DNA from: Candidatus Latescibacterota bacterium
GTDB lineage: Bacteria; Latescibacterota; UBA2968; UBA8231
NCBI GenBank assembly: GCA_965200315.1
Contig: OZ241362.1
Location: 5,216,001 to 5,280,000, forward strand
Direction: 5' to 3'
Length of the DNA stretch: 64,000 nucleotides
Shown: piece by piece, positions 48,634-51,875 of the stretch
Layout: every line of letters starts with the position of its first letter
Numbering within the stretch: position 1 is the stretch's first letter
The notes under the pieces: model-generated
Seen by the model: the letters and a program-made list of their open reading frames with translations, nothing else
Told to the model about the DNA's origin: nothing
Database searches by the model: none
Translations under genes and position numbers: made by a program

Positions 48634-49337
48634 GTGTTCGACACCAGCATTCTCGACGAAGCCATAAGGGCGCGCCGCCAGAAGCTAGCGGCCGAGCAAG
48701 CCGAGTTGCTCGCCGGTGTTCGTCGCACCCTATTGGAACTGCGGAAGCCTCTCGGAATTGAGGCGGCGTACATTGTGGGCTCGCTGCGGTCGCCAGATTC
48801 TTGGCGCGAGTCGTCCGGCAAAGAGGTGGACGTAATCGACCTCGACCAGCATCCTTCCCCCAATCCTTTGCGCAGTCTGGAGTCGAGGTCTATGGACTCG
48901 AAGCGGAACTACGAGCGCGTTTACGAGACATCAGTCGCATCAACGGTCGCATTGAGGAACGCCTAGGCGCGTTTACCCGTAGTGCCGAAGGGGTGGACAG
49001 CATGGGATACCAGCTCCACAATCTCTATGGCGCGTTTGAGCAGTTGTTCGAGGAAGTTGCGCGATTCTTTGAGAGTCGAATCGAAGGGATTCAGCATCGC
49101 GCAGAACTGATCCGGCGAATGCAGCTAGAAATCGCGGGCATCCGCCCGGCACTTCTGGCCGCAGAGACTGCTTCCGACCTAGATGAATTGCGGCGATTCC
49201 GCCATCTGTTTCGCCACGCATACGCCGCGGATTTAGAGCCCGACAAGGTGGCGGATTTAGCGGCCAAAGCCGGGCGCGTTCAGCGCACTTTTACGCAGGA
49301 CTTTGAGCGATCCTTAGCGCATTTGCGGTCTGAGTAG
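48634..49337 (+). pseudogene. Decayed MNT (MntA-like) / HEPN (HepT-like) toxin-antitoxin module
   Basis: MNT part has IVGSL and VDVIDL but lacks the DxD segment. HEPN part has LHNLYGAFE and RRFRHLFRHAY (Rx4H). Frames are scrambled at the junction. Confidence 0.75.
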
Positions 49338-49338
49338 C

Positions 49339-50586
49339 TCAGCAGACGAGTGTGTACTGCTTCTTACCTCGGCGCACGATCAAGTACTTGCCGTGTAGGC
49401 CCTCTTGGCACCGCATGCTCCGCGCCAGGTCCGTGCAGCGGGTGCCGTTGATGTATATGGAGCCGTTTTGCACATCTTGGCGGGCTTGGCGCTTGGAGGG
49501 CGAGACGCCGGCCGCGACGAGCAGATCGACTAGCCCTAATTCCCCCGGACCCATCGCGTGCGTTGGCACGTCGTCAAAGCCTTCGAGGATTTCCTCCTCG
49601 GATAGTTCCTGAAATTTCCCGTAAAAGAGCGCGTCCGAGATGCGTTCGGCCCGGCGAGCAGCGTCGGCTCCGTGTACGATAGTCGTTGTTTCAGTGGCGA
49701 GGGTGCGCTGGGCCTCGCGCTGGGCAGGCTGATCGCGGACGGCCTCGGCGAGCTGGAGAATCGCGTCTTGCTCCAAGAAGGTGTACGTCTTCAGGTAGTC
49801 GATGACCTGCTGATCCTCGGCGTTGATCCAGAATTGGTAAAACTGGTAGGGCGAGGTTTTAGCGGAGTCGAGCCAGACGGTGCCCGCCTCGGTTTTGCCG
49901 AATTTGGTGCCGTCTGCTTTGGTTACGAGCGGGCAAGTCAGGCCAAAGGCTCGGTTGCCGGCCGCGCGGCGGATCAGATCGGTGCCAGCGGTGATATTGC
50001 CCCACTGGTCAGAGCCGCCGGTCTGCAACTCGCAGCCGTATTTTTCGTTGAGGGCCAAGAAGTCGTACGCCTGTAGTGCCATGTAGCTGAACTCGGTATA
50101 GGAAATGCCCGTTTCTAGGCGCGAGGCGACCGAGTCCTTGGCCAGCATGTAGGGGACTGGAAAGTGCTTGCCGACGTGGCGCATAAAGTCGATGGCCGAG
50201 AATTGGCCGAGCCAGTCGTGGTTATCGACCATGATCGCGGGGTTGGGGCCATCGAATGCGAGGAAACGCTCTAGCTGGGCTTTGACCTTCTGAGTCCACT
50301 CGGCCACGACGTCGCTGGCATTGAGCTGGCGTTCCTTGGTTTTGCCGCCTGGATCGCCAATCAGGCCGGTGCCGCCGCCAGCGAGGGCGATGACCTTGTG
50401 ACCGGCGAGCTGGAAGCGGCGCAGGAGCAGGATCGGCACGAGGTTGCCCACAGTCAGGCTGTCGGCGGTCGGATCGAAGCCATTGTAGAGCACGATCGGC
50501 CCGGTAGCGAGGCGTTCGGCGAGGCCGTTGAGGTCGGTGACTTGGTGGATCAAGCCGCGAAATTCAAGATCGGGTATGATGTTCAT
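49339..50586 (-). CDS. tyrS: Tyrosine--tRNA ligase
   Basis: YNGFDPTADSL, QAYDF, GGSDQWGNI, KFGKT, C-terminal S4 domain ending RRGKK. Confidence 0.98.
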   Translation of the reverse strand: MNIIPDLEFRGLIHQVTDLNGLAERLATGPIVLYNGFDPTADSLTVGNLVPILLLRRFQLAGHKVIALAGGGTGLIGDPGGKTKERQLNASDVVAEWTQKVKAQLERFLAFDGPNPAIMVDNHDWLGQFSAIDFMRHVGKHFPVPYMLAKDSVASRLETGISYTEFSYMALQAYDFLALNEKYGCELQTGGSDQWGNITAGTDLIRRAAGNRAFGLTCPLVTKADGTKFGKTEAGTVWLDSAKTSPYQFYQFWINAEDQQVIDYLKTYTFLEQDAILQLAEAVRDQPAQREAQRTLATETTTIVHGADAARRAERISDALFYGKFQELSEEEILEGFDDVPTHAMGPGELGLVDLLVAAGVSPSKRQARQDVQNGSIYINGTRCTDLARSMRCQEGLHGKYLIVRRGKKQYTLVC

Positions 50587-50605
50587 TGCGTTTCCTTATG
50601 GGCAT

Positions 50606-50632
50606 AAAAAAAGCCCCTGTAATCAGGGGCTT
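50606..50632 (-). terminator. Intrinsic terminator in the tyrS 5' leader (attenuator)
   Basis: Minus strand AAGCCCCTG-ATTA-CAGGGGCTT followed by TTTTT, ending 20 nt before the tyrS ATG. Confidence 0.85.
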
Positions 50633-50664
50633 GTAAATGCGGTTGAGACGATAAAGCGGATGTA

Positions 50665-50724
50665 CTACCCTTGTCTATGAAGCGGGGTATAATAATAGTG
50701 GCGATCAGCGAGATTCTGCATCAT
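50665..50724 (-). CDS. Putative tyrS leader peptide MMQNLADRHYYYTPLHRQG
   Basis: GGAGA RBS (50733-50729), ATGATG, three tandem TAT codons (50697-50689), TAG stop; lies between the promoter and the terminator. Confidence 0.8.
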   Translation of the reverse strand: MMQNLADRHYYYTPLHRQG

Positions 50725-50740
50725 CCATTCTCCGCGCAAA

Positions 50741-50769
50741 AATATAACCGCGATCCCTATCCCCGTCAA
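50741..50769 (-). promoter_or_regulatory. sigma70 promoter of the tyrS leader
   Basis: TTGACG (50769-50764), 17-nt spacer, TATATT (50746-50741). Confidence 0.7.
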
Positions 50770-50783
50770 TTAAGAGGCTAACA

Positions 50784-51875
50784 ATGACTAATGAACAATA
50801 CCGAGTGGCCGTCGTCGGCGCGGCCGGCACGTGGGGGGGCTATTACACGCACGCCTACGCCGCCCATCCCAACTGTGAGATTGTCGGCCTCGTCGATCGC
50901 GCCAGAGAGCGGCGGGACGCCATGGCCCGGCGCTACGGAGTGGAGAAGGTGTACGACGATCTCGACAGCCTCTTGGCGGCCGAAGTGCCCGACATCGTCT
51001 CCGCTGTGGTTCCGGTGGGCCAGAACTACCCCTGTGTTACGGCCTGCGCTCGCGCTGGGGTGCGGGTCGTCTCCTGTGAGAAGCCGATTTCTCACCAGCT
51101 CCACGAGGCCGATGAAATGATCCGCATCTGCCGGGAGCACGGTGCGTTATTCGGCTGCGCTCAGGCCGGATGGGCGACTCCGTATATGCCCGAGGTGGTC
51201 GAGTGGGTGCGGCAGGGGCATATTGGCCGGTTGACCGCGGCGGCGATCCCGGGCGGGTTGCCGACCGAGGTGTCGGGCGGCGGTTGCGTGCAGATCGCGG
51301 CCTTGCGCATCCTCACTGGTATGGACGTGGAATGGGTGGAAGGGTACACCTTGCCGGCGGTGTCGGGGTACGTGGCGGAAGGCGCACCCGTAGAGGAGGG
51401 GGATGTGCCTGCGTATGGCCGCTTGGGCCTGAGCGGTGGCATCGTCTGCGAGGTCGTCGCCCCTGAGCCGGATGGTCGTGTGCCGACCTTTATCTCGGTT
51501 GTCGGCGAATGCGGGCAGGTCTTTTTAACGCGCCAGCAGCCCGTGTTGATCGAGGGGACCGGCGCGGCGGCTTCTCCAGTATATCCCGACTTTTTGGATC
51601 AGCCAGCGGCCGACTCTTTTACCTATACGATTGAGCGCCTAATGAACGCCCATCGGGACGGCACTGAGCCGTATAGCAGCGGCGACGACTACCGCCACGC
51701 GCTCGAAGTGGCCATCGCCTTGGTGCGCTCGGCTCATCGAGGACACGAGCGGGTGTCCCTGCCGTTTGCGGACCGCACGCTCAAGCTGTATCCGCATCCC
51801 TATCGCCTCAGAGGCGGCGATGTCGCCGGGTGGCAGAGCATTGGCTACGATGGACCGCCGGCGATGGATTTTTGA
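50784..51875 (+). CDS. Gfo/Idh/MocA family oxidoreductase
   Basis: VAVVGAAGTWG, CEKP. Confidence 0.85.
   Translation: MTNEQYRVAVVGAAGTWGGYYTHAYAAHPNCEIVGLVDRARERRDAMARRYGVEKVYDDLDSLLAAEVPDIVSAVVPVGQNYPCVTACARAGVRVVSCEKPISHQLHEADEMIRICREHGALFGCAQAGWATPYMPEVVEWVRQGHIGRLTAAAIPGGLPTEVSGGGCVQIAALRILTGMDVEWVEGYTLPAVSGYVAEGAPVEEGDVPAYGRLGLSGGIVCEVVAPEPDGRVPTFISVVGECGQVFLTRQQPVLIEGTGAAASPVYPDFLDQPAADSFTYTIERLMNAHRDGTEPYSSGDDYRHALEVAIALVRSAHRGHERVSLPFADRTLKLYPHPYRLRGGDVAGWQSIGYDGPPAMDF

Follow-up and report, generated by a model that had tools for sequence, protein, structure and literature searches.

How tyrS, the gene for tyrosine--tRNA ligase, is controlled when an intrinsic transcription terminator stands between its promoter and its start codon is the question raised by the locus described here, which lies on the minus strand of a 64,000-nucleotide (nt) stretch of DNA (the window, to whose positions the coordinates below refer) from a Candidatus Latescibacterota genome (G000; one contig, 5.36 Mb, 59% G+C). 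We found that tyrS, identified by TIGR00234 (E 4e-117, 391.7 bits versus a cut-off of 113.8) and the single match to a tyrosyl-tRNA synthetase (TyrRS) found in this genome, is preceded by a leader of about 150 nt, which appears from its sequence pattern to be driven by a sigma-70-type promoter and which contains a short open reading frame (ORF) with three consecutive tyrosine (Tyr) codons, followed by the terminator. Judged by its sequence and its conservation, this leader is most probably a ribosome-mediated (leader-peptide) transcription attenuator that tunes tyrS to the supply of charged tRNA-Tyr. An earlier, sequence-only reading of the window had listed a promoter, a ribosome-binding site, a Tyr ORF, pairing segments, a 9-bp terminator with U-tract and the ribosome-binding site and ATG of tyrS, and each of these parts was recovered exactly where it had been placed (Table 1). 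The terminator hairpin, computed at -15.5 kcal/mol, was the sole one found by pattern scan in positions 49000-51200, and its end lies 24 nt from the tyrS start. Because the neighbouring upstream gene is divergent, the terminator ends no upstream gene, and, as the 24-nt gap is too short to hold another promoter, all tyrS transcripts have to pass it by read-through.

The block proved to be conserved in relatives, which were metagenome-assembled genomes titled Candidatus Latescibacterota, with a few titled Gemmatimonadetes. Within the genus of the window (tyrS 78-100% identical), a promoter, a Tyr-containing ORF and a terminator are present ahead of tyrS in 23 of 23 loci, including one with masked bases and two Tyr only (L022), and the gene upstream of the block varies among the genomes. 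An upstream ORF with adjacent Tyr codons plus a terminator was present in 53 of 110 fetched loci, duplicates included. Deduplication reduced these to 41 distinct leaders, three loci having been lost to a length filter, one of which (L065) does carry ...CRYRYYPQQSGG and a terminator. The architecture of a ribosome attenuator, as proposed from the window, is thus present and conserved: promoter and terminator are kept in all 41 leaders and a callable in-frame Tyr ORF in 40, the exception (L095) being without an ATG, GTG or TTG start. Relatives keep the Tyr ORF, so that its loss, one of the outcomes named as refuting in the sequence-only reading, did not occur, and positions T24, A25, T26, A27 and T29 of the -10 region are invariant in the alignment of 29 leaders. 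In nearly all leaders of the genus, 31-32 nt separate the stop codon from the terminator arm (overall range 27-34 nt); across the 40 leaders with a callable ORF, the ORF ends 22-42 nt ahead of the terminator, and the terminator is followed by the tyrS start after 24-49 nt.

The distribution of the element was delimited with a covariance model (R1) built from 33 leaders, which matched exactly once in each of 36 genomes, out of 132 in the class, and these 36 are all members of family f1 (36 of 76 genomes, 6 of 18 genera; 27 of 30 genomes of the window's genus); non-matches in the rest of f1 do not show absence, as R1 would miss leaders of the DRRYRR type described below. The three genus genomes without a match have masked bases in the leader (G024), a partial tyrS (G006) or a 58% complete assembly in which tyrS was not found (G018). 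No R1 match was obtained in the other three families of the class (0/31, 0/22 and 0/3), and the leader is missing from seven loci of a different family of the class, where tyrS (about 60% identical) directly follows the upstream gene. These comparisons of sequence mark the leader as a real, conserved cis-regulatory element.

The Tyr codons are the feature that the leader peptides hold on to. Peptides as divergent as MQTLRADRYYYYYYTSRPKGG, MQTPDAYRHDYYTSSFRWG, MHTLHVYRYYYYTLSTRGV, MQTSHTYQYYYSHRHLGGC, MTRTIAYRYYYYASGG and MKPIYRYYHLGTSGG all retain Tyr, which accounts for 120 of the 779 residues in the 40 leaders (15.4%), versus 3.07% in a set of 2,425 long ORFs from the genome, with one to six Tyr per leader (single-Tyr cases: L069, L071 and L075). 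By simple arithmetic, with Tyr at 3.07% of codons, the chance of a YYY run in a 19-residue peptide is about 5 in 10,000. Among the leader Tyr codons, TAT outnumbers TAC by 82 to 38 (TAT 68%, versus 34% of Tyr codons genome-wide), and Tyr positions switch synonymously between TAT and TAC from leader to leader. In addition, alignment gaps within the ORF are of 3, 6 or 9 nt, those elsewhere in the transcribed leader being mostly of 1 or 2 nt. In these alignments, Tyr enrichment, synonymous switches and in-frame gaps are signs of a translated frame selected for Tyr codons. The frame itself had been given as 19 codons; the ORF is present, but several relatives have ATA-ATG, ACG-ATG or ACC-ATG at its start, so that the second ATG (50721) alone is conserved, and this ATG sits 7 nt past the Shine-Dalgarno sequence, suggesting that the peptide is likely to be the 18-residue MQNLADRHYYYTPLHRQG. 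An alternative-frame ORF from the ATG at 50728 was rejected, having 7 codons in the window and being found in some relatives only.

A second leader in the same genome shows that the identity of the codon run may follow that of the gene. A genome-wide scan gave 236 terminator-like sites, of which 97 had an ORF of at least 150 amino acids starting at most 220 nt downstream. At 36 of these 97, an upstream ORF with some amino-acid run was found, and at two of them, tyrS and thrS, the run was recognised as cognate to a downstream tRNA-synthetase gene, the remaining 34 downstream ORFs being unannotated. The thrS gene (TIGR00418, E 1.7e-205; contig C1:4388646-4390865, outside the window) is preceded by a promoter, by MISALLTVASTPSISGLPSEPTATSTTTISTG as a threonine (Thr)-rich ORF and by a terminator that lies 24 nt from the start codon; in the corresponding leaders of genus relatives (L112-L134), uninterrupted runs of Thr codons reach a length of 12, as in ...GPTTTTTTTTTTTTMCAG. 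By its layout, the thrS leader is a probable Thr leader-peptide attenuator. Since the codon run changes with the synthetase gene, this pair of leaders makes the best indirect case for the codons as the sensor. Other synthetase genes of this genome have no such leader: pheS (C1:1709300-1709500, L142) is located downstream of rplT and an intrinsic terminator and lacks a Phe ORF, and trpS and hisS adjoin their upstream genes. The terminator between rplT and pheS indicates that the organism uses canonical hairpin and U-tract terminators at gene ends too. In family f2, thrS is preceded by a different leader (L136-L141), with a conserved promoter, about 150 nt without a Thr-run ORF, and a terminator of the form CGCGCGCCGG...CGAGCGCG plus a T run.

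Based on this layout, we infer a mechanism in which ribosome stalling, an antiterminator formed by segments 2 and 3 (2:3) and the direction of regulation would be as follows. When charged Tyr-tRNA is scarce, the ribosome would stall at UAU-UAU-UAU and cover segment 1 (UACCCC); segment 2 (CAAGGGUAGUA), at the ORF's end, would then be available to the emerging 5' arm of the terminator as a pairing partner, so that RNA polymerase would enter tyrS. When it is plentiful, the ribosome would reach the UAG within segment 2 and mask that segment, allowing the terminator to form; without translation, segments 1 and 2 would pair with each other (1:2), again allowing the terminator to form. The extra TyrRS made during scarcity would restore charging and close a homeostatic loop, like that of pheM-pheST of Escherichia coli. 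In this genome, tRNA-Tyr is encoded by a single gene (anticodon GUA), and the preference for UAU, the rarer codon and one read by wobble, would sharpen the sensor.

Folding of the leader RNA is compatible with this scheme. In the minimum free energy fold of the whole window leader (z-score -2.0), UACCC and GGGUA form the 1:2 hairpin, and the terminator is present as well. When the nascent RNA of 40 leaders was folded as far as the terminator loop with the ribosome in three positions, upstream pairing of at least half of the terminator 5' arm was seen in every leader (40 of 40) for a ribosome on a Tyr codon, the partner nearly always being the G-run at the ORF end, in 2 of 40 for a ribosome on the stop codon, and in 12 of 40 for ribosome-free RNA. 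The UAG stop lies inside segment 2, so that a terminating ribosome is positioned to mask it. This three-position pattern is the behaviour expected of an attenuator, to which the folding model lends weak support. Across the 29 aligned leaders, 90% of cells in the 1:2 helix are paired, versus 30-64% in slid controls, and 88% of those in the 2:3 helix, versus 31-58%.

Table 1. Features of the tyrS leader and flanking genes in the 64,000-nt window (leader block, 50586-50769, read on the minus strand)
Feature	Position	Strand	Basis
-35 hexamer TTGACG	50769-50764	-	Direct read and promoter pattern scan; TTGAC invariant across 29 aligned leaders
-10 hexamer TATATT, 17-nt spacer to -35	50746-50741	-	Pattern scan; promoter has 10/12 consensus matches
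Leader-ORF Shine-Dalgarno GGAGA	50733-50729	-	GGAG kept in most of 41 leaders
Leader ORF ATG-ATG-CAG...TAG, MMQNLADRHYYYTPLHRQG then stop	50724-50665	-	Direct read; callable counterparts in relatives
Regulatory Tyr codons UAU-UAU-UAU (putative)	50697-50689	-	Direct read
Segment 1 UACCCC, begins within last Tyr codon	50689-50684	-	Pairs with segment 2 in minimum free energy fold
Segment 2 CAAGGGUAGUACAUCCG, overlaps stop codon; partner is segment 1 or segment 3	50673-50657	-	Nascent-RNA folds
GGGUA, part of segment 2 region	50670-50666	-	Direct read
Segment 3, GCAUUUAC plus terminator 5' arm AAGCCCCUG	50640-50624	-	GCCCCUG invariant in 29 leaders
Terminator stem-loop, DNA letters AAGCCCCTG-ATTA-CAGGGGCTT	50632-50611	-	Pattern scan
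Terminator as RNA, AAGCCCCUG-AUUA-CAGGGGCUU, 9-bp stem (6 G-C)	50632-50611	-	Pattern scan
U-tract, seven U; first two also pair in stem	50612-50606	-	Pattern scan
tyrS Shine-Dalgarno AAGGA	50597-50593	-	Direct read; AGGA nearly invariant
tyrS, tyrosine--tRNA ligase, 415 amino acids, ATG at 50586	49339-50586	-	TIGR00234 match
Divergent gene, Gfo/Idh/MocA-type oxidoreductase-like	50784-51875	+	Matches under cut-offs

Several observations weigh against a ribosome-sensing leader, most of them concerning the alternative pairings. Shuffled upstream segments pair with the C-rich terminator arm about as well as the real ones: in the window leader, 6 of the 9 arm nucleotides are paired at -5.8 kcal/mol, a count matched by 46% of dinucleotide shuffles (mean -7.3), and L057 alone of 15 representatives is clearly above shuffle chance. 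When segment 2 and the terminator arms were swapped among lineages, no preference for the own partner was seen (p=0.36). Each of the two helices, 1:2 and 2:3, shows one double change, with unremarkable covariation scores (that of 1:2 was equalled by 32 of 500 shuffles), and the structure returned by RNAalifold was limited to the terminator and three 1:2 base pairs. In full-length RNA with the ribosome footprint masked, the terminator is thermodynamically preferred in 40 of 40 leaders. In addition, the leaders that are most distant, at tyrS identities of 64-67%, contain one or two Tyr each, for example ...DRRYRR..., ...DHRRYRVY... and ...EYRYTP, and the genomes compared are kin rather than independent samples.

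The structural predictions of the sequence-only reading were therefore borne out in part. The sequences are compatible with the 1:2 and 2:3 pairings it described, but shuffles, swaps and pair counts give these no statistical support; alignment of relatives, which it had suggested as a check, confirmed a conserved Tyr ORF and terminator but revealed almost no covariation in either helix; and folds with the Tyr-codon footprint constrained placed the terminator arm in upstream pairs in every nascent RNA, but not in the full-length RNA, in which the terminator won in every leader. As the terminator wins at equilibrium, an antiterminator must act kinetically, by kinetic trapping, and the classical trp attenuator is likewise understood to act in this way.

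The chance-level antiterminator is also the main point in favour of a simpler view, in which a fixed, leaky terminator dampens tyrS, the upstream ORF has no sensing role and its Tyr codons are incidental; the weakness of the window's own antiterminator, at -5.8 kcal/mol, points the same way. We consider this view improbable, because it leaves aside the five-fold enrichment of Tyr, which persists despite synonymous codon changes in otherwise divergent peptides, the Thr-run leader before thrS, by which codon identity follows the gene, and the fact that a terminating ribosome would cover the arm's partner in 38 of 40 leaders. An attenuator read by the ribosome thus remains the preferred interpretation.

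The window leader differs from the consensus of its genus. Its segment 2 reads CAAGGG, versus CAGGGG in the genus consensus, owing to a minus-strand A at 50671, and its ORF is one codon short of the consensus (NL-ADR versus NLRADR, in the 50711-50713 region); its predicted antiterminator is the weakest of the set, other genus leaders having values of -10 to -20 kcal/mol. Contigs of four sequencing runs showed no difference at position 50671. These comprise RNA-library contigs (X4 and X7) and DNA runs (X1 and X5) of one study. As contigs cannot show transcript starts, ends or levels, they were given no weight, and the same applies to the X4 contig, which spans the terminator and the divergent promoter and fits carry-over of DNA, and to a 160-nt contig of X7, which covers 50601-50760. 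The stretch is present in runs labelled sponge metagenome, and X1 may be its source.

An Arg codon in the motif AUCGC or AUCGA was observed one or two codons ahead of the Tyr run in almost all lineages (40 leaders; window positions 50698-50706), with the context variants DRHYYY, YRYYYY, YRYYH, HRYSY, EYRY and DRRY. In five leaders (L069, L071, L075, L070 and L072), the ATG lies 6-7 nt after the -10 box and one or two Tyr codons are flanked by Arg codons; from this spacing, their peptides may be translated from leaderless transcripts. A further single-genome observation upstream of tyrS, in family f2, is a long tandem array of GTCTCCC heptamers between the upstream gene and tyrS (L024).

The motif around the Arg codon is relevant to another explanation, that the terminator is switched not by the ribosome but by some other factor bound to the leader RNA, which would be TyrRS itself or, via a structure that is not a T-box, uncharged tRNA. 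ThrRS, which binds the thrS operator of E. coli, provides a model for such control by a synthetase. Nothing speaks for it directly, and the fact that AUCGC/AUCGA, read as Arg, is kept at the nucleotide level across lineages is what can be said in its favour. An Rfam scan of the window at E up to 1 gave a single hit, a chance match of the terminator to the small RNA SpF51 (23.8 bits versus a gathering score of 50), and the Thr, Trp, His, Leu and Phe leader families (Thr_leader, Trp_leader, His_leader, Leu_leader and Phe_leader) had no match in the window at the same threshold. Moreover, the leader is about 150 nt long and has little conserved structure besides the terminator, and gaps in multiples of three together with synonymous changes point to translation. 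Control by a bound factor is thus decidedly improbable.

We also considered whether the ORF could be an independent small-protein gene with its own terminator, tyrS being expressed through incidental read-through. The ORF does have its own promoter, Shine-Dalgarno sequence and terminator, as such a gene would. The peptide, however, is poorly conserved save for Tyr and the terminal Gly codons, the block always accompanies tyrS while the neighbouring genes change, and the gap of 24-49 nt between terminator and tyrS (40 leaders) leaves no room for another promoter of this single-copy gene, which makes this explanation highly improbable. A T-box riboswitch like that of Firmicutes tyrS, the alternative named in the sequence-only reading, would share the downstream gene and the final terminator, but it was rejected and its probability is practically negligible, since the T-box model RF00230 matched neither the window, at E up to 1, nor any part of the whole genome, and at gathering score it matched 0 of 10 related leader-bearing loci, versus 3 of 3 Paenibacillus tyrS controls, and the leader is shorter than the 219-position model.

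For the ribosome-mediated attenuator that we favour, the Arg-Tyr context allows a broader and more speculative proposal. Family f1, in which no T-box was seen, might have built leader-peptide attenuators for at least two synthetase genes, tyrS and thrS, and at the conserved Arg-Tyr core of the tyrS leaders (DRHYYY, YRYYYY, DRRYRR and EYRY) stalling might be aided by the Arg codon or by the nascent peptide, which would enable even single-Tyr leaders to sense Tyr-tRNA. We regard this proposal as a whole as doubtful; if true, the Arg-Tyr core would represent a minimal-codon variant of attenuation that is not described for classical leaders.

Should attenuation at tyrS be confirmed, tyrosine would become one of the few amino acids known to have a leader-peptide attenuator, the mechanism would be extended to a phylum known only from metagenomes, and small leader ORFs that are overlooked by gene callers would be seen to carry regulatory information. 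The device is small, at about 130 nt, and self-contained. Literature searches found no title or abstract on a Tyr leader peptide before tyrS, and the survey of Lopatovskaya et al. 2010 (Mol Biol 44:128), which reportedly covers attenuation in amino-acid and aminoacyl-tRNA operons, may list such leaders; searches on Latescibacteria or sponge symbionts together with tRNA synthetases found nothing relevant.

Among known systems, the closest in design is the attenuator in the pheM leader of the E. coli pheST operon, which likewise places a short ORF rich in codons for the synthetase's own amino acid, and an intrinsic terminator, before the synthetase gene. The proposed tyrS leader would share its homeostatic logic, in which low charging leads to stalling and stalling to read-through. 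The two differ in the amino acid (Phe, not Tyr) and in the organism (gamma-proteobacteria versus an uncultured lineage labelled Latescibacterota), they have no sequence relationship, and the tyrS leader is known from sequence alone. The leaders trpL, hisL, thrL, leuL and pheL have the same four-segment design, in which segment 1 is immediately preceded by the regulatory codons, the ORF stops at segment 2, and segments 3 and 4 form the terminator. Unlike the tyrS leader, they control biosynthesis operons, and the literature searches turned up no Tyr member of this class.

PMC1262725 names pheST as a classical case of attenuation and predicts classical leader-peptide attenuators for trpS and leuS of Streptomyces, so that the novelty suggested by the sequence-only reading is confined to a Tyr leader before tyrS, for which the literature searches gave no precedent, and does not extend to leader peptides before synthetase genes in general. 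The Streptomyces leaders resemble the present one in being computational predictions before synthetase genes outside the proteobacteria, but concern other amino acids and another phylum. For the tyrosine operons of Actinobacteria, the same paper reports no conserved upstream RNA regulatory structures, and it describes aminoacyl-tRNA-synthetase genes of Firmicutes as using T-boxes.

The T-box of Bacillus and Paenibacillus tyrS (RF00230) serves the same gene and, as the proposed attenuator would, lets transcription pass a terminator when tRNA-Tyr is uncharged, but it reads the tRNA directly, in a leader of more than 200 nt with no ORF. Thus, for a textbook T-box gene, the family described here appears to reach the same end by the older device of ribosome stalling, and to do likewise for thrS.

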